Source: a virus. From it: 64,000 nucleotides of DNA. The stretch is from the IMG/VR virus record IMGVR_UViG_3300035698_022738, positions 32,852-96,851 of that record; one strand, 5' to 3'. This document shows, piece by piece, positions 15,848 through 33,070 of this stretch. The first letter of the stretch is position 1; each line of letters begins with the position of its first letter. The notes under the pieces were generated by a model, which saw only the letters and a program-made list of their open reading frames with translations, did not search any database and was not told the origin of the DNA. The position numbers were made by a program, and so were the translations under genes.

Positions 15848-16647
15848 GTGATTTTGAGGTATCTCTTATTGATATAGTGGGGGGTGCATTGCATCAGATT
15901 GAGAGAGAGAAGACTCCAATTGTTCGATTCTCTGGACTAAGCCGTAGGCAGCTCGTGCATTGGTTCTTTAACTCAATTGTTAGGATCAAGTCAATAGAGA
16001 TCGAAATCTATGAGCCATTTGAGGATTGTGCTGAATATTTGGTGCATTGCCGGAGTGGAAGTGAATCGTTTTTCTTAGCAATATATGAAACATATGAGCG
16101 TAGTCATAATTTGGATACAGCAGATGTAAGAATCACGATTGCTAACATTGAGAATGCAAAGAAGTATCTGAGTGAGATGTGCAGGCTTATAGATGGTTTG
16201 TTAGTTGACATGAACTCTGTTCGTGATTTCTATTGTCTTCGATCTGAGACGTGTGGAAAGGAAAAGAACGCATGAACATGGTCAAGATTGATGGATGGTT
16301 TGTAGATATTTCTGACGTAGCGTCTACGGCAAAGCCGTGTGATATGGCTGAGTTGCTGAAAGATTATTCGTCTCGATCTGATCCAAGAGAGGTTGCCAAG
16401 TTTTTGGCTGCGTGGTCCTCATCTGATCAGGCACAGACTATTCGATTTCTGCGTAATTTGCTTTTGTCATATGCTGAGACGCCAGATGATCTTATTGATG
16501 ACAATACAGAGCGGGAACGACATTTCTGTCAGCGGGTGGAACAATTTTGGCAGGCAGGCATGTTATGATGGGCTTATTGGATGTGGATAGTTTTGTAGTG
16601 AGTCGAAAAGTTTTTCCAGAATTCCCCAAAAATTTTCGATCCCGTAT

Positions 16648-16676
16648 TTGACTTTACATGTAACATGTGGTATACT
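16648..16676 (+). promoter_or_regulatory. Strong sigma70-type early promoter
   Basis: TTGACT-N17-TATACT with extended -10 TG, an A/T-tract UP element and a palindromic spacer (ttacatgtaa). Confidence 0.85.
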
Positions 16677-16682
16677 GTTTGT

Positions 16683-17182
16683 GGGTAAGGGCTCCCAGCC
16701 CAAACCCGCCACCTAGCAAGTAGTTAGGGGGTCAGTAGAATAGAATCTGGATGGGATCACTGGCAATGATGGGGGATGGTAGACGGCCTGAACCCTGAGC
16801 TCGGTCCAGATCGAGGGCAGGAAAGTCAGTAGACAGGATAGCCCTCATTGATGGCCCACCAAAAGCTTTTCTGGGCGATCTACACCACACCTTGGAACTG
16901 GCACGCAAGGGATGGTCACTGGTAAATTCCAACCTGACTGGTAAACACTCCGACGACAATGAGGGACCAGGGACCAAACTGGAAACGGGGTCAAGGCACA
17001 CCACATCTAACCTCTGGATCGACTATGAAAAGAGAACTGCCAGGGTCAAGTTTCCCCCCTCACGGTATACGACTTTTGTATCCGTGATTGCACTGATGAG
17101 TGACTAACGTCTCATCACAGCGACATCAAACGCAGGCTATCGCTGTACGCCTGAGTGCAATCACGGCTACAAAAGTCTTTTT
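16683..17182 (+). ncRNA. Candidate large structured ncRNA / leader (~500 nt)
   Basis: No credible CDS; many complementary segments; ends in a long stem with internal hairpins, a pseudoknot and a U-run. Confidence 0.55.
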
Positions 17183-17201
17183 GATTCAAAGCATAGGGGG
17201 T

Positions 17202-17636
17202 ATGAAAATGAACATGGCTAACAGGTCTTATGAGTTGGTCAAAGCGGGTCTCGATAGTATTTCACACTACACTTCTGGTGATTACGCTGCGGTGACCATG
17301 TGGCAGGGGATGTCTCGGTTTGCGTTTGTCGATGACCTGATGCAAAAAATGGGGTTGGATTGCTTTACCAATCACATTACGGTTTACGGGGAACGCTCGT
17401 GGATCGTAGAGTTATACAGCATCCTGGACAGGGAAAAACGCCTTGATGCCTCAGTGTATCTCAGTTTGGACGTGGGCACAGCTGATGTCAATTCTAAGGT
17501 CTGTGTCTCAATAATGATGTCGGACGATGGTTTTGGTCGTTTCATCTATCGAGCCAAGGTAACTCAGAAGCAACTGGAAGCTGAGATTGCTGTCATCAAA
17601 GAGGCAGCCATTCGATTTGAAATGGGGGAAAAATGA
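17202..17636 (+). CDS. Hypothetical early protein
   Basis: AAGCATAGGGGG leader then ATG. Confidence 0.6.
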   Translation: MKMNMANRSYELVKAGLDSISHYTSGDYAAVTMWQGMSRFAFVDDLMQKMGLDCFTNHITVYGERSWIVELYSILDREKRLDASVYLSLDVGTADVNSKVCVSIMMSDDGFGRFIYRAKVTQKQLEAEIAVIKEAAIRFEMGEK

Positions 17637-19234
17637 GCTGGGAAAAAGAGGACCTGATCCAGACCCGTTACGGCTGGTATCGGCTTGATACCAGTCACAA
17701 AACAAATGTTCATGAGGACTACCTCAGCACGGAGCTTTTCTGGAACGAGTGGGCGGCATTGAGAGAGTGCATCCAGAACGCTCTCGATGAGGCAGATATT
17801 ATGTCTCAGTTGCAGGGTGGGGAAATCCACGATTACATTAGCATCAAACGTCGTGGGGAACGAGTTATCCTGGCTGATCGTGGTCGGGGTGTTGACGTTG
17901 AGAGTATCCTCTTAATTGGCAAGTCCGGAAAACGTGGGGCTGGCCTTCGAGGGGATAAGGGTGAGGGTCAGTTGATGTCTTTTCTGGTGTTCACTCGTCT
18001 TGGGATTGACATTGAAATGTTTTCACGAGACTGGCTGGCCCGTCCTCGTTTCGAGAATTTCAACGGTAGCGATGCCAACACCAATAAGGTGTTGGTTGTG
18101 GACTTTTACCGATGCACTGATACCGACAGCCAAAAGGCTCTCAAAGAGGGTTCGGTCTGGCATATCGAGCGGACATCAGAAATTGATGAGATGGTAGCAA
18201 CCATCGGGGATTATTTCCCTGAAATCTCACCAGCTGCCAAACGACAGGCCAAACGTCGGAAAGAGCAAGAGCAAGAGGAACGCTGGCGGGAACAGGATGC
18301 TCATAGCAGAAAACAACAAAGTCGAGAGCGGAATGAAATCCGTCGGAAATCAACGACGGTCAACAAGCCAGTGTTCCGGCCTCGAAAAGGAACTCCCGCT
18401 CGGTTGTACTTGAGAGGGATTTACGTCAAGGACCTGACCGACAGCCAAAAGGCTCTCTGGTCTTACAACCTTGTGGATGCCTCGATTGACAGGGACCGCA
18501 AGATGGTCAACGAGCTTGAGTTGCTCGATGACATAGCCGAGAAAATGGGGTCTGAGTACGTGACTCCTTCGATGGCTCGGGAGTATTGGGAGCACGCCAA
18601 AGCTCAGGACAGGGCGTTGTATCTTGAGTTCAGAGTGGTCCCCCGACCTCAGAACGACGAAGTGTTTGAAATGTGGGCCAAGGCGTTCTGGAAAGTCTTT
18701 GGCCCGAAGACTTGTATCTACACCAACAGCTATGCCGCTGGTGACGCTGCGCGTGAGGGGTGGAACGTGATACCCCTTGACAATATTCAGTTGCGGTTTG
18801 CTCTTGACTCGTTGGGGGTCAAGACTGATAAGCAAGCCGCTGGTTTCACCTCTGGCGACTTCAAGCTGGTTGACAAGGTGACACAGCGGGAAACCGATAT
18901 GATAACCAAGACCTTGGAGATTTTCGATCTGCTGGGTCTCGCTCAGAGCTTCTCTCGGTTCCATGTTGTTGGAACCATACTTGGTGATGAGGAGACAGAG
19001 GCCTTTGCTTATGCGGGTGAGATATACGTCACTCGTAAGGCCTTCAAGCGAGGGGGCTTGCATGTCTTGGAGTGTGCCCTGCACGAAAAGGGGCATATTG
19101 AAACTCTGACGCAGGACTTTACGCGGGGATTTACTCACTGGTTCCTGCACAACTGGGTGCAGGCGTTACGTGGAACCGATCTCAATCGTCAAGTTGAGAT
19201 CGCTCAGAAAATTGCAGAACTAGAATCAATCTAA
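17633..19234 (+). CDS. GHKL (HATPase_c) ATPase with C-terminal HEXXH zincin-like motif
   Basis: ALRECIQNALD, LADRGRG, GKSGK..GDKGEG; C-terminal LHEKGH. Confidence 0.75.
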   Translation: MSWEKEDLIQTRYGWYRLDTSHKTNVHEDYLSTELFWNEWAALRECIQNALDEADIMSQLQGGEIHDYISIKRRGERVILADRGRGVDVESILLIGKSGKRGAGLRGDKGEGQLMSFLVFTRLGIDIEMFSRDWLARPRFENFNGSDANTNKVLVVDFYRCTDTDSQKALKEGSVWHIERTSEIDEMVATIGDYFPEISPAAKRQAKRRKEQEQEERWREQDAHSRKQQSRERNEIRRKSTTVNKPVFRPRKGTPARLYLRGIYVKDLTDSQKALWSYNLVDASIDRDRKMVNELELLDDIAEKMGSEYVTPSMAREYWEHAKAQDRALYLEFRVVPRPQNDEVFEMWAKAFWKVFGPKTCIYTNSYAAGDAAREGWNVIPLDNIQLRFALDSLGVKTDKQAAGFTSGDFKLVDKVTQRETDMITKTLEIFDLLGLAQSFSRFHVVGTILGDEETEAFAYAGEIYVTRKAFKRGGLHVLECALHEKGHIETLTQDFTRGFTHWFLHNWVQALRGTDLNRQVEIAQKIAELESI

Positions 19235-19484
19235 AGGAGATTTCAATGCCACGGATCGTAAGAAATTTTTTCATCTCTGGTGAGGTGGATGGACGCAAGA
19301 CAGCGATTTCGGTCGGACCCGCCTCGAAAGAGGGGGGGTTTGATGTGCAGTTCCTCATTCGGAGTGCGGGTGAGGTAGCTCAGTCGGTGAGGGTTATCGG
19401 TGAGGCCTTCGAGGGGGGTGATCTCAAGCTCACTGTTCTCGATGAGAACGGAAATGACATTCATGTACACCGGACTGTCCGGTA

Positions 19485-19565
19485 ACGTCGTTTGGGCGAC
19501 GTAAAATAGCCGTCAAGCCCAAAGCGTAGAGAGCTCCGAGTTGGAAGTTGGAGCTCTCTGGTCGG
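19485..19565 (+). ncRNA. Pistol self-cleaving ribozyme 1
   Basis: P1 CGUCG/CGACG; loop UUUGGG pairing with CCCAAA (pseudoknot); AAAUAG; P2 CCG/CGG; GCG; P3 UAGAGAGCUCC/GGAGCUCUCUG; GU cleavage site at 19561-19562. Confidence 0.88.
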
Positions 19566-19597
19566 GGATAAGCCCGAGCATAGGATGGGAGTGAAAA

Positions 19598-19903
19598 ATG
19601 AATGAATTTCTGGAACGTCACATTGTAGTATGTCCGATGGAAAGACCGACATTTGTGGTACGTTGTCCCCTCTGTGGTTTCGAGACAGAGGTCGATGACC
19701 ATCTGTCGGAGCACATCCTCGAAAAGCATGAGCTTGAAGCTCGTGATGGGACAGTTGATCTCAGCTCTCTGAGTGAGGATGTCAGAGAGAACATCAAAGA
19801 GACCCTGGCTGATTGGGATTTGGATGCGTCTCTCTGCGAGGAAAGTACACAAGAATATGATGATTGGTGTCAGGGGATGGCGGAAAAGGAGTGCAAGAAA
19901 TGA
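19598..19903 (+). CDS. Small Zn-finger-like early protein
   Basis: CPLC...HILEKH. Confidence 0.55.
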   Translation: MNEFLERHIVVCPMERPTFVVRCPLCGFETEVDDHLSEHILEKHELEARDGTVDLSSLSEDVRENIKETLADWDLDASLCEESTQEYDDWCQGMAEKECKK

Positions 19904-20449
19904 GCAAAGACATATATGAACTTGTTTTAACGGACTGTAATTTCGAGCGGCTGATAGATGCCTATGAGGCGTTTTGTACATTGTTCTTGGTACAGCCTGA
20001 AGTGTATGTACGAGGGGTTTTCAAGAACAACGAGGGCGGAGAAATAGTTGCTCTTTCGTCGGATATCAAGGTCTTGAATGTGAATCCTTTGGTTGGACTT
20101 GTGAACAATGGGAACCTTGAACTTGTTCCAAGTAGCCAATGTGAGTGGTCTATGTATCTCAATCGAAAGAGAGGGTTACAAAAATGAAATATAAGTGGCT
20201 GGCAGAGGCAGGTATCGCTGGGTGCCTGCCTGGGTTTACTTCCATCTGTGATACCAAGGCAGATGCTATTCAGACTGTTACAGACCTTTTCGACCTTTCA
20301 CGTTATGGACGTGTTGCCAAGGACCTGTCACAGGCTGGTGATACCGTTTCGGATCGTGATGAGTCGGAACATGATCTGATGCGTTTTCAGGTTTACAAGG
20401 TAGTCCCGGCTGACCTGAATGTGGAGAGCTGGGATGAATTGGAGTTCAA

Positions 20450-20850
20450 TGATGATCTCTAATCGGATAGACAGGGCGCGGAAAGCTGTCGAGTTTTGCC
20501 ACGTTGGTACTGAGCGGAAAGGGATCATCCAGACTGTGTTTGTCCCAGGTCACGAGGGTCGGAAATATCGAGTGATCCTCAAGCGCGGAAAGGGATTGGT
20601 CACTCTGGAATGTCAGCGGATGTTGCCCTATGACACGTCTGTCCTATGTCCAGGGGGCTGTAAGACGGTTTGTTACCATTGTATGGCAGCTCTCATCTTT
20701 ACGGCTCACCAGGCTGGATTTGATACCTCGTTCTGTGAGTCGAAAGAGGATGCTCTCAGGCTCAAGAATTTGCACGAGGGTGCGCTGATGATGCGAGTGG
20801 TGAGCAAGCATGCACCATCAAACGGATGTTTTGCTGTATTCGGCAAATAG
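20450..20850 (+). CDS. SWIM-type Zn-finger-like early protein
   Basis: YRV...LEC...CPG..TVCYHC pattern. Confidence 0.45.
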
Positions 20851-20858
20851 GGTAGTTC

Positions 20859-20986
20859 CGGCGACTTTGGAAGTCACGTCCAGGGGACAATACCTCATTG
20901 ACGCTATGAAGCCTAACTAGCAGACGTGGATATGGGGCTGGCATAGAATGGTCGTAAGGAGTCCGGCTAGTGTACAGCCGTCGCCG
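20859..20986 (+). ncRNA. Candidate structured intergenic RNA
   Basis: Outer stem cggcgac/gtcgccg; internal pairings cacgtc/gacgtg, ctatg/catag, actagc/gctagt, cggct/agccg. Confidence 0.5.
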
Positions 20987-21014
20987 TCAATCAATTCAAG
21001 CATGGGAGATTAAA

Positions 21015-21719
21015 ATGGAAAAATTGTTTCCGACATGGGATGAAAAGCCAACAGATTCTGGGCGTATGATTGCTTATGTTTCCGGACATTTCCGGTACTG
21101 GACTGGGAACTCGTGGAACCAATCCACGAGCTACGCGCATAACGTCAAGATTCCGAGGCTGGGTCTTGACAGTGAGACACGGGACAAGTGCTATGCTGCA
21201 CTGGATATTCCACAGGCTTTTGATGAGGTAAATGAAATTCTTGAAGACTTCGCTGTCCGGCACAACTACGCCTGGAAGATTTCGTTTAATGACCGCTCTG
21301 GGGGCTACCTTGTACTCTATCAGGGTGGGGTGAAAGACAACAAGTCATTTGTCTATCCAGTTCGAGGAGTGGGAGAGATGGACTGGGTGGACGGTGATTT
21401 TCTGACGGACTTGGTTGATGTGATATGGGATTTCGATGAGACTTGTCAGAGGGCTGTCGAAGTCTTTGTCGAATTTGCAGTGTCACATACCGTAGTGGAA
21501 GAAGAGATTATGGTTTCCAAAACAGTCCTTGTGGCAATCTCAAATGAGGATGCAAACCGCAGGGAGTCCAACAGGCTTTGGGAGTCGGCCTGTCAGTTCG
21601 ATGGGTACGATCCGGATGAAAAGTTTGTATGCTTTTCGGATGAAAATCCGTTCACCTCTGAGTACAACGCACGTATGATCGAGCGTCTGGAATACAGTCG
21701 GCAAGGCGACGTTAAATAG
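21015..21719 (+). CDS. Conserved hypothetical early protein
   Basis: GHFRYWTGNSWNQSTSYAHNVK...FNDRSGGYLVLY pattern; GGGAG SD. Confidence 0.65.
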   Translation: MEKLFPTWDEKPTDSGRMIAYVSGHFRYWTGNSWNQSTSYAHNVKIPRLGLDSETRDKCYAALDIPQAFDEVNEILEDFAVRHNYAWKISFNDRSGGYLVLYQGGVKDNKSFVYPVRGVGEMDWVDGDFLTDLVDVIWDFDETCQRAVEVFVEFAVSHTVVEEEIMVSKTVLVAISNEDANRRESNRLWESACQFDGYDPDEKFVCFSDENPFTSEYNARMIERLEYSRQGDVK

Positions 21720-21764
21720 CCATCAGGCCTTGCGCGTCAGGCCCCCTCTCGGGGCCTGGGTTGG
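21697..21764 (+). ncRNA. Pistol self-cleaving ribozyme 2
   Basis: P1 GUCG/CGAC; loop GCAAGG pairing with CCUUGC; UUAAAUAG; P2 CCA/UGG; GCG; P3 UCAGGCCCC/GGGGCCUGG; GU at 21760-21761; covaries with copy 1. Confidence 0.85.
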
Positions 21765-21791
21765 AACACAAATCAAGCATGGGAGACTAAA

Positions 21792-22313
21792 ATGGCAAAT
21801 GTGTTGATTTTCACAAAGGAAGAATTTGAGGCTGCTTTGCCTTGTCACAAAGATACAAGCAAGCAGCTATGGACTTATGAGGGGATCGAGAACAATGAGC
21901 ACTGCTATTCGATAAACATTCCGGGGGGGAAACCTCATCGGGTGTTTATCCGGTCCTCTGTGGGTCTTTCAGGTTTGTCAGCTACGTGTGGAGAGGATAG
22001 CATTCGTATCTGGCTCGAAGAGAAACGGCCTATCGGTATCGGGAATCGAGAGGCCTGGGCCGGTGTTAAGAAAAAACAACGCTGGGTGACACGAGTCACA
22101 GGCTGGCAAGAGCGTGTTGTGAATGTTTGTCGGGAGACATACCGGCTTGGAGTCAACAAAGTGAATCTGGAAAGTGCAGCTCCACTTTGTCCGAAGTGTC
22201 AAACAGAGATGCGGATCAGGTTCCGCAAATCTGATGACAATCCCTTTTGGGGATGCCCTGGGTTCCCAGCTTGCAGGGGGACCGCAAATGTTAAAGTTTC
22301 AGCGGGTCTTTGA
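21792..22313 (+). CDS. Protein with C-terminal topoisomerase-type C4 zinc ribbon
   Basis: CPKCQTEM..R....FWGCPGFPACR. Confidence 0.75.
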   Translation: MANVLIFTKEEFEAALPCHKDTSKQLWTYEGIENNEHCYSINIPGGKPHRVFIRSSVGLSGLSATCGEDSIRIWLEEKRPIGIGNREAWAGVKKKQRWVTRVTGWQERVVNVCRETYRLGVNKVNLESAAPLCPKCQTEMRIRFRKSDDNPFWGCPGFPACRGTANVKVSAGL

Positions 22314-22320
22314 GTTGTCC

Positions 22321-22349
22321 TTGATGGATTTTGCGGGTTGTGGTACAAT
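22321..22349 (+). promoter_or_regulatory. sigma70-type promoter
   Basis: TTGATG-N17-TACAAT with extended -10 TG, upstream of the helicase. Confidence 0.6.
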
Positions 22350-22396
22350 TGACCCTAGACTCAAGTAGAGTTAGCACAAGCATAGGAGAGTGTAAA

Positions 22397-24103
22397 ATGT
22401 CTAGTAAGACAATGGTATGCCCCGCTTGCGGAGCAGAGATGGTTCTGCGGAATGGCCGCCGTGGCAAATTCTTTGGCTGTTCCACATTCCCCAAATGTCG
22501 CAAGACCGTGGATGCGGCAAACGGAGCATCTGGGATATTCCCAGTCAAAAAAGAGGTGCCAGCTGTAATGCACCCCCCTACTCCTCAGCAAGAGGAAATC
22601 TTTCAGGCCATAGCCAGTGATGATTGCGACGATATTGTCATTGAGGCTGGCCCCGGTTCTGGAAAGACCTACACGATTGTCCAGTCCCTCCAAAAAACGG
22701 CTGGTCGTGGAAAGGTGGTCGTGGTTGCATTCAACAAGGCCATTCAGCTAGTCCTTAACCGACTAGCACCTGACCACGTTCTCACAAGCACGTTCCACAG
22801 CCTGGGGTTCTCAATTTGCCGCAACGCAGCAAGCGGTCAGATTTCTGTAGACCAGAACAAAAAATACGGGATTGCGAAGAATATTCTGTTCCCCAATGAT
22901 GCCGACAAGGCAGCTAGGGGAGCTGTCGTGAAACTGGCGAGTATCTGTCAGAACACACTGGCTGACCCGACAGACCAGGCCCTGATGTACCACCTGATGG
23001 ATGAATACGACATTGGGGATGTCTTGAAAGAAAAACACCAGCCAGCTATGGTTGTCGATGCTGTCCCCACGTTGTTGGCTCACAGTGCAAGCTTGGAACT
23101 TTTAATCGACTTTGATGACATGATCTGGATGCCTGTCATCAAGGGTATGAAACCAACTGTGTTTGATTGGGTCAATGTCGATGAGGCGCAGGACTGCAAT
23201 GCGTGCCAGATCGAGTTGATTAAGATGATCACTTCCCCCTATGGGCGGGTCAATGCAGTAGGGGATCGACACCAGTCGATCTATGGGTTCCGTGGGGCTG
23301 ACTCGCACGCCATTCCCCGGCTCATATCTGAGTTGAACAACACCTCGGTGCTACCCCTGAATATTACTTTCAGGTGTCCAACATCTCACGTTGCTCTGAT
23401 CCAGCAGCTGGTTCCAGAAATCACTGCTCGGGACGGAGCTCCGGAAGGAATCATCAATGAGGGCGTGCGTTTGCACGAGATGTATGATCAGGCAAAGCCA
23501 GGGGACTTGATCCTGAGTCGGATCAATGCCCCTCTGGCTGGGGATTGCCTTGAATTTCTCCGCAGGGGGAAAAAGGCAGTCGTGATGGGTCGGGACATCG
23601 GCAAAAATCTTATCACCTTGATGGATCGGGTTGATACGGAAAAAACCGATGACATGATCAAGGGCCTTGCTGATCACCTTGATGTGGAACGTACTCGGTT
23701 TGCTTTGGCTGGCAAAGAGCACAAGATAGCTGCTCTTGAGGACAAGGTGGAAACCATTTTCGTGCTGGCTGAGGGGACAAAGTTGGTCAGTGAAATCGTC
23801 CAGAAAATCAATGCGATATACAGCGACACTGCTGAGGGCATTGTGCTCTCGACAGTTCACCGGGCCAAGGGACTGGAAGCTGAGGATGGTTACATTCGTA
23901 AGCCGTCCCTCTTTCCTCACCCACGAGCTAAGAGTGAAAAAGACATCATCCAGGAGCGCAACATTCTGTACGTTGCTCTTTCCCGGTTCAAAAAATCACT
24001 CTCATTTGTCGAAGGAAAATCACCCATTTCGATCTCATCAGAATTAGTGACAACAGAGGCAGCTGATCCAGTAGCTGCCTCTGAGGCGCAGGGGCTGCTA
24101 TGA
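22397..24103 (+). CDS. UvrD/Rep-like SF1 helicase with N-terminal topoisomerase Zn ribbon
   Basis: CPACGAEM..FFGCSTFPKC; AGPGSGKT, DEAQD, VGDRHQSIYGFRGA, TVHRAKGLE, YVALSR. Confidence 0.9.
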   Translation: MSSKTMVCPACGAEMVLRNGRRGKFFGCSTFPKCRKTVDAANGASGIFPVKKEVPAVMHPPTPQQEEIFQAIASDDCDDIVIEAGPGSGKTYTIVQSLQKTAGRGKVVVVAFNKAIQLVLNRLAPDHVLTSTFHSLGFSICRNAASGQISVDQNKKYGIAKNILFPNDADKAARGAVVKLASICQNTLADPTDQALMYHLMDEYDIGDVLKEKHQPAMVVDAVPTLLAHSASLELLIDFDDMIWMPVIKGMKPTVFDWVNVDEAQDCNACQIELIKMITSPYGRVNAVGDRHQSIYGFRGADSHAIPRLISELNNTSVLPLNITFRCPTSHVALIQQLVPEITARDGAPEGIINEGVRLHEMYDQAKPGDLILSRINAPLAGDCLEFLRRGKKAVVMGRDIGKNLITLMDRVDTEKTDDMIKGLADHLDVERTRFALAGKEHKIAALEDKVETIFVLAEGTKLVSEIVQKINAIYSDTAEGIVLSTVHRAKGLEAEDGYIRKPSLFPHPRAKSEKDIIQERNILYVALSRFKKSLSFVEGKSPISISSELVTTEAADPVAASEAQGLL

Positions 24104-24741
24104 ATGAGTTGGGTGAAAGAGTTCATGGCGATCTCAAGAATCTGGTGCACTGGATGGGGGCAAACAGCAAGATGTCCGGTTGGCGCATGCAGCCGGATGA
24201 GCTTGAGGGTGAGTGTTGGTTGGCTGTTGCACGCTGTCTTGATCGGTATGGGAAGTCCATAGAATACCCAGAGCTGCTCAGGGCATGCCGACAGTCGATG
24301 AAATTTGCCGTGATAGACGCCTCACGTTTATCTGGGCGTGAGACTGAAATGTACTTAGAAGACGCATTAGATACACAAGGGGAGGAAAGTTGGGATGAAT
24401 CAATTCCAGACGATCTCATCTATACCCCTGAGTTACACCTTGAGGCAATGGAACTGGTAACATCTCTGTCTGGTTCTCTTTCAGATACTGACAGAGATGT
24501 TCTGGACGCCATTTTGGGAAAGAATAAAAGGGTTCCTATCTATCTTGACCTGTGGATCAAGCGGTCAAGAGCTGCATTTTCGGGTAGGTCTGTGTCGACG
24601 AATATCTACGTTATTTCAAGGGCATTGTGCCTGTCGGAGTGGACCATCCGGAGAAGTTTGAGGCGTATAAAAGCCTCGTCAGAGGCGCATAGGGGGAGAA
24701 GGAGAAATGGATCTGACAGACCATGTATCGAAGGAGTTTAA
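24100..24741 (+). CDS. Sigma-factor-like protein 1
   Basis: DELEGECWLA..RY...AVIDASR is region-2-like; C-terminal HTH-like ISRALCLSEWTIRRSL. Confidence 0.55.
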   Translation: MNELGERVHGDLKNLVHWMGANSKMSGWRMQPDELEGECWLAVARCLDRYGKSIEYPELLRACRQSMKFAVIDASRLSGRETEMYLEDALDTQGEESWDESIPDDLIYTPELHLEAMELVTSLSGSLSDTDRDVLDAILGKNKRVPIYLDLWIKRSRAAFSGRSVSTNIYVISRALCLSEWTIRRSLRRIKASSEAHRGRRRNGSDRPCIEGV

Positions 24742-25162
24742 TCACGGGGAGTTGGTCAAGGTAGCTGAAATGATGGGCCTGGCTCCCACCTCTAGGTGGG
24801 GAGAACGCAAGCTCGTTGATTCCATCTTTGCCAAATGCAAAAAGGATGGGGTTCCGGAGCTTTCCCTTCGGGATGACGATCAAAGGCTTTTCACTGATTT
24901 TCTGTTCGTTGCTGAGCTCATTGATGAGCCAGAGGATGCTAAGAAATCAAAGTCAGATGAGGATGCGTTTGACCAAGAGTCTAAGCCGGATTGCTTTATG
25001 TTTGCAGATGATAAAGACCCGGCCTGTGGTCGGTGCAAGGTCTATAAGTTTTGTGTCGATGCCCGGCTCAGGAACCTCCCAGATTGCTTTGGTCACAGGT
25101 TTGATTTGGAGACACCGGAATGTCAGCTGTGCATCTATGCACCTGACTGTAAGATGGCATAG
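24707..25162 (+). CDS. Cys-rich hypothetical protein
   Basis: Two PDCF...C..C...C repeats. Confidence 0.6.
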   Translation: MDLTDHVSKEFNHGELVKVAEMMGLAPTSRWGERKLVDSIFAKCKKDGVPELSLRDDDQRLFTDFLFVAELIDEPEDAKKSKSDEDAFDQESKPDCFMFADDKDPACGRCKVYKFCVDARLRNLPDCFGHRFDLETPECQLCIYAPDCKMA

Positions 25163-25684
25163 GAGAGTAAAATGATTAGAGAACTGAAGTACACTGTGAA
25201 GGCGTTTAGGTCCATCTTGTCGGGACCTTTGGGTTGGGTAGTTGCCACAGAGGATGAGTGGCGACCAGCTGAATTGATGGATTGGTCGTTTAGCTCGTGG
25301 TACATCTGTGCTGAGTACCAGAACGGGCGGCACATCCCGTTTCCTGTTCTGGACGGGGTAAGTGGTAGCTGGTTCCAGAGACGGGCCATTCGAGCAGCTG
25401 AGTGGTTGTCAGGAAATTCAGCTTTCCCAAGTGATCCCCCAGACACCTCAAACTCCGGCATGTGCGTTGTAAGTCCGGGAGCTTTGGGCCTTGAGTCCAG
25501 TATTTTGGCGGGTTTGGTAAGGGACACCATTGCTGAGGATTGTCATCAGCGTGATGCGGGTGTCCGTAGATACAGACATCCAAATATGCAGAGCTTGCAT
25601 GAGAATACTAAGCTCGGAACAGAAGTCAAAGAGTCTCTGTACAGACATATGTACGGCGGGAAGTGAGTTGACAGGCAGGACAAT

Positions 25685-25719
25685 GGCACACATCCTAAAT
25701 CGGGTGTGTGCCTTTTTTT
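25685..25719 (+). terminator. Intrinsic terminator ending early region
   Basis: ggcacacatcc/gggtgtgtgcc stem followed by T7. Confidence 0.85.
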
Positions 25720-32311: not shown

Positions 32312-33070
32312 ATGACAAAAAAACGACTGACGTATGAGAACCCTGCCAAGTATGGCAGGATCGACCCAAAGAAGTGGCGGAAGTATCCCGATTATTTTAC
32401 ACAAGTTCTCTGGCCTTCTGAGTTGCCCTCACGGCCTGCCCAATATGGGTCAAATGATTTTCATGGTCGTACTCACCCTGAGATAGCTTTTGTATCTTTG
32501 GAGCGTTACACCGAGCGAGCTGAGACTGTTTGGGATGTCTTTGCAGGTTCGGGTACGATTGCAGATGTCTGCAAGGAAATGGGCAATCCGTGTATCTCTA
32601 CCGACATCAATCCAGTTCGGGAAGATATAGTCAAGGTCGATGTACGTTACTGGAAACCGTCTGGGACTGTCCAAATGGCTGTCGTACACCCACCCTATCT
32701 GGACATCGTTAAGTATGGCCCAGAGCCAGGGTTGACCACGGGGGATGTTTTTGATTACACCTGGGACATGGGCCGGGTTCTAAAGAATGTTGACAAAGCA
32801 CTTGATCCTGGCAGAGTTGTCGTTCTGATTGTGGGTCAGGTGTACAATGATAAACAGGTTGTGATGTTGGATGCTCAATTACATCCTCTGCTTCGTTCTA
32901 TGGAATATAGGCTATTGGGTCGAGTTGTGAGGAGCTATGGGGAAACTAAAGGGGGTGAGACAGCCGGAAATCGTAATGAAAATTTGTGGAAGTACCGGAG
33001 ACTGAAAACTGGTTTATGGTCTCTGGCGTTTGAGACAGTTCTGTTTTATCAAAAGCCAAATACCAAATAG
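32312..33070 (+). CDS. DNA methyltransferase
   Basis: FHGR, VWDVFAGSGT, HPPY. Confidence 0.8.
   Translation: MTKKRLTYENPAKYGRIDPKKWRKYPDYFTQVLWPSELPSRPAQYGSNDFHGRTHPEIAFVSLERYTERAETVWDVFAGSGTIADVCKEMGNPCISTDINPVREDIVKVDVRYWKPSGTVQMAVVHPPYLDIVKYGPEPGLTTGDVFDYTWDMGRVLKNVDKALDPGRVVVLIVGQVYNDKQVVMLDAQLHPLLRSMEYRLLGRVVRSYGETKGGETAGNRNENLWKYRRLKTGLWSLAFETVLFYQKPNTK

Follow-up and report, generated by a model that had tools for sequence, protein, structure and literature searches.

Two canonical pistol ribozymes at gene boundaries of a replication-type gene block in an uncultivated phage

Gene context of the two elements

The two elements described here, pistol 1 and pistol 2, lie in a 64,000-nt stretch (the window; positions 32,852 to 96,851) of the 96,851-bp IMG/VR virus record IMGVR_UViG_3300035698_022738, within a tightly packed, co-directional block that holds a helicase and other replication-type genes. 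All genes of the block are on the plus strand with a median gap of 11 nt, and the elements occupy two of its few gaps (Table 1). An earlier note on this DNA had placed each of them at a stop codon, and this was borne out: the TAA of the 79-aa ORF abuts pistol 1, while pistol 2 takes in the last 8 codons and the TAG of the 234-aa ORF, over P1, the loop and the linker, the TAG being identical with the UAG of the linker. The 234-aa ORF carries a C-terminal extension of about 60 residues, which is absent from every aligned relative. The same note had put the predicted cuts 30-37 nt before the next start codon, in agreement with the leaders of 36 and 31 nt found here. As each cut would fall between a stop and a start 31-36 nt further on, all reading frames would stay intact. 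The tight fit at the stop codon may reflect genome compaction alone, which would speak against a role in processing.

Upstream of the block, the best sigma-70-like promoter match was found at 16648, and the only plus-strand site with a clean T-run between 15000 and 27000 was a terminator-like hairpin at 25685, which likely marks the end of the transcription unit, judging from its match to the consensus. A consensus scan showed no terminator-like sites at the two ribozymes or directly next to them. A ribosome-site motif, GCAURGGRG with AUG after it, occurs at six plus-strand sites between 17191 and 25165, with a variant at 19577; four of these sites precede genes without a ribozyme. The earlier proposal that self-processing provides the messages with a uniform leader therefore does not hold, as the motif is operon-wide and the ribozymes are not its source. 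A 5'-terminal hairpin of the 3' product was considered as a general device for release or protection and rejected, as 45% of 69 products have one but so do 41% of shuffled ones, and it is hence not enriched.

The block contains a third large gap, of 164 nt, and the 20-nt leader at its end recurs after pistol 2. A 281-nt stretch around it gave no Rfam matches even at E <= 10, its fold stability is not unusual (z +0.82), and it holds no credible small ORF; neither a paralogue in the genome nor a homologue in 2 Mb of phage loci was found. By these searches, the gap was ruled out as a known ribozyme.

Table 1. Features of the locus (window coordinates, all on the plus strand).
Feature	Position	Strand	Details
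Best sigma-70-like promoter match upstream of block	16648..16676	+	TTGACT, 17 nt, TATACT, with TG; consensus match only
79-aa ORF	19246..19485	+	phrog_37977, unknown function; TAA stop 19483-19485 abuts pistol 1
Pistol ribozyme 1	19486..19566	+	P1 5 bp, pseudoknot 6 bp, P2 3 bp, P3 13 bp with 8-nt loop
Pistol 1 P1	19486-19490 with 19497-19501	+	direct reading, descriptor
Pistol 1 pseudoknot	19491-19496 (UUUGGG) with 19518-19523 (CCCAAA)	+	direct reading, descriptor
Pistol 1 P2	19510-19512 with 19563-19565	+	direct reading, descriptor
Pistol 1 P3	19527-19539 with 19548-19560	+	direct reading, descriptor
Pistol 1 predicted cleavage	between G19561 and U19562	+	P2 3' strand directly after
36-nt leader	19562..19597	+	predicted 3' product of pistol 1; SD GGGAG 19587-19591
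101-aa ORF after pistol 1	ATG 19598	+	sole family matches: two zinc-binding Pfam matches below cut-off
Third large gap in block, 164 nt	20851..21014	+	ends in same 20-nt leader as after pistol 2
234-aa ORF	21015..21719	+	widespread phage family, without Pfam or PHROG match; TAG 21717-21719
Pistol ribozyme 2	21696..21765	+	P1 4 bp, pseudoknot 6 bp, P2 3 bp, P3 9 bp with 5-nt loop
Pistol 2 P1	21697-21700 with 21707-21710	+	
Pistol 2 pseudoknot	21701-21706 (GCAAGG) with 21728-21733 (CCUUGC)	+	
Pistol 2 P2	21720-21722 with 21762-21764	+	
Pistol 2 P3	21737-21745 with 21751-21759	+	
Pistol 2 predicted cleavage	between G21760 and U21761	+	P2 3' strand directly after
31-nt leader	21761..21791	+	predicted 3' product of pistol 2; SD GGGAG 21781-21785
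173-aa ORF after pistol 2	ATG 21792	+	C-terminal Zn-ribbon-like match; UvrD-type helicase next
Catalytic GCG	19524-19526 (pistol 1), 21734-21736 (pistol 2)	+	
Conserved G (metal site)	19517 (pistol 1), 21727 (pistol 2)	+	
AAA of linker	19504-19506 (pistol 1), 21714-21716 (pistol 2)	+	
Intrinsic-terminator-like hairpin and T-run	25685..25712	+	consensus match only

Identification of two pistol ribozymes

The whole window was scanned with Rfam 15 at gathering thresholds, which yielded two matches to the Pistol model (RF02679), both on the plus strand, as the only ones. Pistol 2 was aligned over its full length (21696-21765) with 60.7 bits and an E-value of 1.4e-08, and pistol 1 was matched at 19486-19545 with 42.2 bits and an E-value of 2.4e-04; both scores exceed the gathering score of 34.5 bits. 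The scan thus agreed with the structural descriptor in upholding the two pistol architectures that had been read from the sequence. In the Rfam alignment of pistol 1, half of P3 is deleted and the match ends on GUUGGA inside the P3 loop, so that P3 is misplaced; the true extent, 19486-19566, was obtained from direct reading and the structural descriptor. Its low score is explained by the long P3, which causes this alignment artefact, the helices and catalytic residues being intact. The pseudoknot is left unscored by the Rfam model.

With 3.6 Mb of reversed sequence as a control, a strict structural descriptor gave no matches, and chance is therefore excluded. Across the whole 96.8-kb record, Rfam returned the same two Pistol matches and none further, and a core-only descriptor recovered just the two canonical copies and one minus-strand match at control level, with no reduced or P1-less pistols. 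No other RNA family was matched in the window at E <= 1 except for one meaningless lncRNA match, and the window contains no tRNAs.

Structure of the two copies

Pistol is said to have been reported as a self-cleaving ribozyme class by Weinberg et al. in 2015. The class is recognised by its three stems P1, P2 and P3, and is associated with phages (PMC4604425, Harris et al. 2015); both copies have all three stems. The residues important for catalysis are G40-C41-G42 (the GCG before P3), G33 (metal site) and the AAA of the linker (PMC10946891), where we infer that the published numbering maps onto the corresponding Rfam positions. In 64 phage pistols, the columns for GCG, G and AAA are invariant. 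Direct reading located the linker AAAUAG in both copies, as well as the two-nucleotide G-U junction between P3 and the P2 3' strand, and all six pseudoknot pairs are Watson-Crick in either copy. Compensatory changes between the copies had also been claimed, and they are present: both bases are changed in four pseudoknot pairs out of six and in one pair of P2. In the family alignment, which comprises 64 phage pistol cores with the window copies among them, pairing reaches 97.6% in P1 and the pseudoknot, a percentage inflated by the alignment having been picked for pairing; 10 of 11 pairs change on both sides, among them all 6 of the pseudoknot.

The window copies thus share with the class P1, the loop-junction pseudoknot, the AAA-containing linker, P2, GCG, P3, the G-U cleavage junction, the conserved nucleotides and the association with phage genes, and differ from it in nothing essential. 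Minor variants are UCA for UUA after P2, U for A as the first linker base, and the 13-bp P3 of copy 1, and all three recur in other natural phage pistols; a P2 of 3 bp is the norm among the phage pistols examined. By family membership and architecture, both elements are canonical pistol ribozymes, and with the family consensus matched they are an ordinary case of a known class, to which they add new members. Both copies would cut themselves at the predicted G-U sites, and the earlier note's reading of a self-processed message is plausible.

Relatives and pistols in other phages

The phage has no DNA match among GenBank phages, a single-protein scan for the 234-aa ORF gave no relatives in IMG/VR, and the lineage-specific pistol pattern is unmatched there. 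In IMG/VR and JGI metagenomes, no relative of the helicase exceeds 43% identity. None of 16 records encoding a related helicase contains a pistol, nor do any of 37 with a homologue of the 234-aa ORF, which makes the elements sporadic, and dispensable, at that evolutionary distance. Near-identical contigs were obtained from four salt-lake DNA runs, with the sole two differences located outside the ribozymes, and thus provide no natural covariation. For RNA runs, a search with 18500-23500 of the window listed none that contains this stretch.

In 33 of 35 Rfam-verified pistols of phage contigs, the stop of a co-directional upstream gene is found at an offset of -39 to +31 nt (median 0) from where the ribozyme starts. 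The leader after the pistol has a median length of 37.5 nt and measures between 25 and 48 nt in 23 of 32 cases, with a full span of 4 to 287 nt. The position of the window pistols relative to genes is typical of the class. Most of the 50 pistol-bearing IMG/VR records (38) hold a single copy and 12 hold 2-8 copies, which in the multi-copy records with listed placements are always on one strand. The phage contig L120 (IMG/VR) contains 8 pistols and, in a ninth equivalent slot, a probable hammerhead, with the core motifs present and an Rfam score below its cut-off; a shared leader follows all nine slots (seven exact copies, two variants). A further contig, L046, contains 4 pistols. As in the window, the ribozymes of both arrays occupy one gap after another on a single strand, start at or in the upstream stop and are followed by a short SD-bearing leader. 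The window differs from the arrays in having only two copies; moreover, the shared leader of L120 occurs solely after ribozymes, whereas the ribosome-site motif of the window also stands before ribozyme-free genes. That ribozymes of different classes can fill such a slot suggests that selection acts on cutting as such.

Discussion

We favour, with a probability of roughly 0.6, the reading that two active canonical pistols are carried on one long rightward message, which would cut itself and be split into uncoupled units. This message would span the block of replication-type genes, from about 16.7 to about 25.7 kb in the window. Each pistol RNA would fold once the P2 3' strand has been made, and would then cut, at 19561/19562 and 21760/21761, respectively. 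The upstream piece would retain the full reading frame, the stop and the whole folded ribozyme, with a 2',3'-cyclic phosphate as its 3' end, and the downstream piece would start with a 5'-OH and the 31-36-nt leader with its ribosome-binding site. Three units of about 2-4 kb would result, with their stability and translation no longer tied together. Co-transcription, cleavage in vivo and an effect on expression are what we infer from the arrangement of the locus.

The earlier note had likened this to phage T7, in which RNase III cuts the early polycistronic mRNA between genes, with the hairpin staying on the 3' end of the upstream product. RNase III is a host protein, and leaves 5'-phosphate and 3'-OH ends. 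The would-be outcome is the same, as intergenic cuts would turn a long transcript into smaller messages with a hairpin on the upstream 3' end; here, in contrast, the RNA would cut itself and leave a 5'-OH and a 2',3'-cyclic phosphate. The parallel is an analogy of outcome only, and the early expression that the note ascribed to the operon is an assumption.

Translation could itself control cleavage, with the terminating ribosome covering P1 and the linker and the ribozyme folding only if the upstream frame is untranslated. Stops at -12 nt or later relative to the ribozyme start are within reach of the terminating ribosome, given the size of its footprint, and this is where 26 of 33 upstream stops are found (27 after correcting window copy 2 to +24). 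As the upstream stop lies in or against the ribozyme in both copies (the linker UAG of pistol 2 for the 234-aa ORF, next to P1 of pistol 1 for the 79-aa ORF) and in about four in five phage pistols, terminating ribosome and folded ribozyme would be mutually exclusive. If so, upstream translation would be reflected in cleavage and in what then happens to the downstream message, and the pistol would be a switch rather than a constitutive cutter. However, the offsets of -39 to +31 nt show no preferred register, genome compaction would give the same pattern, and the linker has UAA and UAG in two frames, so that any frame reading into it stops regardless of function; we regard such gating as distinctly unlikely. 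It is unlikely, too, that the pistols are active but selfish or neutral cassettes, sometimes with a leader, which spread into gaps where cutting after a stop is harmless. The sporadic distribution (absence from the 16 helicase-related records and the 37 with a homologue of the 234-aa ORF), the single copy in most carriers (38/50) and the ribozyme-plus-leader repeats of L120 and L046, which resemble duplicated cassettes, would all fit passengers, but the strict co-orientation with genes, the position 3' of a stop and 5' of a ribosome site in 33 of 35 cases, and the other ribozyme class in an equivalent slot of L120 speak against them; likewise, the base pairing is kept by compensatory changes, a sign that activity is under selection.

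After cleavage, the whole ribozyme except for its last 4-5 nt would remain on the upstream piece, and the offset of the stop (median 0, -39 to +31 nt) is far more consistent than the length of the leader (4 to 287 nt). Both points are compatible with a selected effect on the upstream fragment, for which the ribozyme fold and the cyclic phosphate would form a protective 3' cap, the downstream leader being incidental. That most leaders have an SD and a length of 25-48 nt, and that the arrays of L120 and L046 retain a conserved leader right after the cut, makes this highly improbable. We consider it extremely improbable that either copy, or both, is an inactive mimic or the relic of a decayed ribozyme. 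Copy 1 scores just 42.2 bits with P3 unaligned by the model, P2 has only 3 bp, and the P2 3' strand of copy 1 can form a 5-bp hairpin with downstream sequence; but the score is the artefact of the long P3 described above in a copy with all helices and catalytic residues intact, a P2 of this length is normal in the phage pistols examined, and the competing hairpin is no commoner than in shuffled controls.

Processing of polycistronic messages by pistols is not a new idea: the association of pistols with phages has already appeared in print, and so has, as a suggestion, the processing of polycistronic transcripts by ribozymes (PMC4604425, PMC6765202). A part in processing polycistronic mRNAs has likewise been proposed for hammerhead and twister ribozymes of bacteria (review PMC6765202). 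They are similar to the pistols in suggested role and gene neighbourhood, with different classes found in equivalent slots, and differ in their catalytic fold; the role is a proposal for them as it is for pistols. Any effect of cleavage may go in either direction: in some hosts, RNAs with a 5'-OH end can be destabilised instead of protected, as is the product of the glmS ribozyme (PMC6765202).

Coming from an uncultivated salt-lake phage and matching the consensus, the locus adds two clean examples of pistols but little by itself. The processing of polycistronic messages, as suggested in the literature, is the sole role on offer for pistols, and across the phage contigs a positional rule emerges, by which the ribozyme starts at the upstream stop and would cut about 25-48 nt before the next start, sometimes in arrays.

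Detection and anatomy of the ribozymes

The window was scanned against Rfam 15 at gathering thresholds, and the sole matches were two to Pistol (RF02679), both on the + strand (see table). An earlier note had read two pistol ribozymes from the sequence and named a covariance-model search as a check; both copies lie above the gathering score of 34.5, and their structural elements are complete. No further pistol copies were found in the whole 96,851-bp record, no other ribozyme classes in the window by a permissive scan, and no reduced pistol copies in this genome by a core-only search. The model alignment spans copy 2 completely. In copy 1 it leaves out the 3' half of P3 and stops at GUUGGA within the P3 loop; direct reading gives a P3 of 13 bp (19527-19539 with 19548-19560), followed by G19561-U19562 and a CGG that pairs with CCG at 19510-19512, so that the true element spans 19486-19566. 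A structural descriptor demanding P1, pseudoknot, AAA, two catalytic G positions, P3, junction and P2 recovered both copies; reversed control sequence totalling 3.6 Mb gave no match.

The pseudoknot is left unscored by the Rfam model and therefore constitutes independent evidence. It comprises six perfect pairs in each copy: copy 1 pairs UUUGGG with CCCAAA, copy 2 GCAAGG with CCUUGC, and 4 of the 6 pairs differ on both sides between the copies. P2 is CCG/CGG in copy 1 versus CCA/UGG in copy 2. These compensatory changes are as described from the sequence. The residues named as catalytic in the literature (PMC10946891) are all present in both copies: GCG in front of P3 (G40-C41-G42), G33, which binds metal, and G53-U54, the site of cleavage. 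When 64 distinct phage pistol cores, the window pair among them, were aligned, the catalytic columns proved invariant. P1 and pseudoknot are 97.6% paired in this alignment, a percentage inflated by the pairing filter with which the set was picked, and 10 of 11 pairs show changes on both sides. The window pair are canonical, ordinary pistols, and the earlier reading of them is correct.

Gene block

The record, an IMG/VR virus with a CheckV completeness of 53%, ends with the window as its final 64 kb, and the window DNA is present nearly identically in several salt-lake metagenomes sampled from 2017 to 2019. All genes are carried on the + strand, with a median intergenic gap of 11 nt and no tRNAs in the window. 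In cultured phages, the closest DNA polymerases are those of Bacillus phages, at only 29% identity.

Features of the ribozyme-bearing gene block (window coordinates)
Feature	Position	Strand	Remarks
Best promoter-like site upstream of block	16648-16676	+	consensus match only
GCAURGGRG motif, variant included	17191, 19577, 21000, 21777, 22380, 24687, 25157	+	seven genes, all in 17.1-25.2 kb
79-aa ORF (phrog_37977)	TAA 19483-19485	+	followed by pistol 1
Pistol 1	19486-19545 as aligned by model	+	RF02679, 42.2 bits
101-aa ORF	ATG 19598	+	36 nt past predicted cut 1, behind GGGAG Shine-Dalgarno
Pistol 2	21696-21765	+	RF02679, 60.7 bits
173-aa ORF, Zn-ribbon-like match	ATG 21792	+	31 nt past predicted cut 2
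Terminator-like site, sole one with clean T-run on + strand	25685-25712	+	consensus match only

Both ribozymes meet a stop codon, as had been claimed: the TAA of the 79-aa ORF adjoins pistol 1, and the TAG of a 234-aa ORF (21717-21719) lies within the AAAUAG linker of pistol 2, the P1 and loop of which form the final eight codons of that ORF. The distances from cut to next start likewise fall within the 30-37 nt proposed. The 173-aa ORF is followed by a UvrD-type helicase and, farther along, by DNA polymerase and other replication genes. The 234-aa protein (21015-21719) belongs to a large, widespread phage family without Pfam or PHROG match; its C-terminal extension of about 60 residues, which runs into the ribozyme, is absent from all aligned relatives. 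Invariant motifs of the family include HFRY.T.NSWN and GRSGGYLVLY, and a four-cysteine insert present in most members is missing from the window copy.

No terminator-like site was found by consensus scan at or directly beside either ribozyme. The promoter-like and terminator-like sites are consistent with a single transcript of about 9 kb, which cuts by the two ribozymes would turn into three parts. Upstream, 16569-17201 is a long stretch without convincing gene that follows the best promoter-like site; at its 3' end lie a long, imperfect stem (about 17071-17176) and a T-run, directly ahead of the shared motif's first copy. The first gene of the block probably starts at ATG 17202 or 17208 rather than GTG 17100. 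For the helicase, ATG 22397, which lies behind the shared motif, is a more probable start than TTG 22331; the resulting gap of 83 nt (22314-22396) contains a promoter-like sequence (TTGATG, 17 nt, TACAAT, with TG).

Leader motif

The earlier note had attributed a uniform leader to ribozyme processing, which did not hold up: the leader motif stands equally before genes with no ribozyme upstream. The leader following pistol 2 shares a 20-nt string (21776) with the end of a ribozyme-less 164-nt gap, 20851-21014, and the looser motif GCAURGGRG occurs a few bases before AUG at six + strand sites, all within 17191-25165, preceding genes that start near 17202, 21015, 21792, 22397, 24707 and 25172; a variant precedes ATG 19598. 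GCAURGGRG is a ribosome-site motif of the gene block, ribozyme upstream or not, and ribozyme cleavage is not its source. It is longer than a plain Shine-Dalgarno, and a translational regulator of the block may bind it.

The 164-nt gap opens directly after a TAG that belongs to an AAAUAG string. Rfam gave no match there with the threshold relaxed to E <= 10, the fold is not unusually stable, no small ORF in it is credible, and neither a paralogue in the genome nor a homologue among 2 Mb of phage loci was found. The gap possibly holds an unrecognised self-cutting RNA, because the equivalent pistol-less slot of another phage contig holds a probable hammerhead (see below); it could equally well be a promoter or plain spacer.

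Relatives and other phage contigs

Searches of GenBank phages, IMG/VR and JGI metagenomes revealed no close relatives of the phage; the closest helicases reach at most 43% identity, and neither their carriers nor those of the 234-aa gene family contain pistols. The two sites therefore look like lineage-specific acquisitions.

A 2015 publication described the pistol class together with its clustering and its association with phage genes (PMC4604425). With a degenerate pistol-core pattern, more than 117 IMG/VR loci were drawn, in which a first matcher found 78 pistols (66 non-redundant with flanks) and a position-specific descriptor 92, this last count listing the window pair a second time through their locus copies; 33 pistols, from 20 of the fetched loci, were confirmed with Rfam. 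Among 35 verified ribozymes, the window pair included, an upstream co-directional ORF stops -39 to +31 nt from the ribozyme start in 33 (median 0), often by using the linker's UAA or UAG or a stop triplet from the P1 loop. From cut to next SD-preceded start the median is 37.5 nt, with 25-48 nt in 23 of 32 verified ribozymes, so the leaders of 36 and 31 nt in the window are the norm. Among 50 pistol-bearing records, one copy was counted in 38, two in 8, four in 2 and eight in 1, and copies share a strand in each multi-copy record with listed placements. One pistol-bearing phage contig also carries a c-di-GMP-I-GGC riboswitch match over the cut-off (L104:1589-1667, 66.3 bits).

Proposed function

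Most likely, the two ribozymes cleave the polycistronic message as it is being made, each past a stop codon. The upstream part would keep the folded ribozyme, ending in a cyclic phosphate, and the downstream part would have a 5'-OH end and a short leader bearing the ribosome site. Neither predicted cut would truncate a reading frame. Processing of polycistronic transcripts has been proposed for bacterial ribozymes and is still unproven (PMC6765202); no later paper testing it for pistols was found in the literature searched. The idea that the P2 strand is generally captured in a hairpin at the start of the 3' product was rejected (45% observed versus 41% in shuffles).

Alternatively, the pistols could be selfish cassettes that do no harm, a switch controlled by ribosomes that terminate inside the ribozyme, chiefly a 3' cap for upstream genes, or inactive. 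A 131-kb IMG/VR contig, L120, bears on the processing reading. At L120:3360-8574, eight pistols and one probable hammerhead occupy nine consecutive intergenic gaps, with a pistol behind nearly every gene of the 5-kb run and the next ATG 33-43 nt downstream of each pistol cut. Each ribozyme is followed by a common leader, 20 nt long and identical in seven slots and a variant in two, and the only slot with this leader but without a pistol holds the probable hammerhead, L120:5014-5075, in which the core motifs CUGACGAG and CGAAAC were found and which scores 24.7 bits in Rfam, under the cut-off. The occupation of the same slot by different ribozyme classes argues that the cutting itself is what matters, and as a model system for the processing idea the L120 array is far superior to the window.
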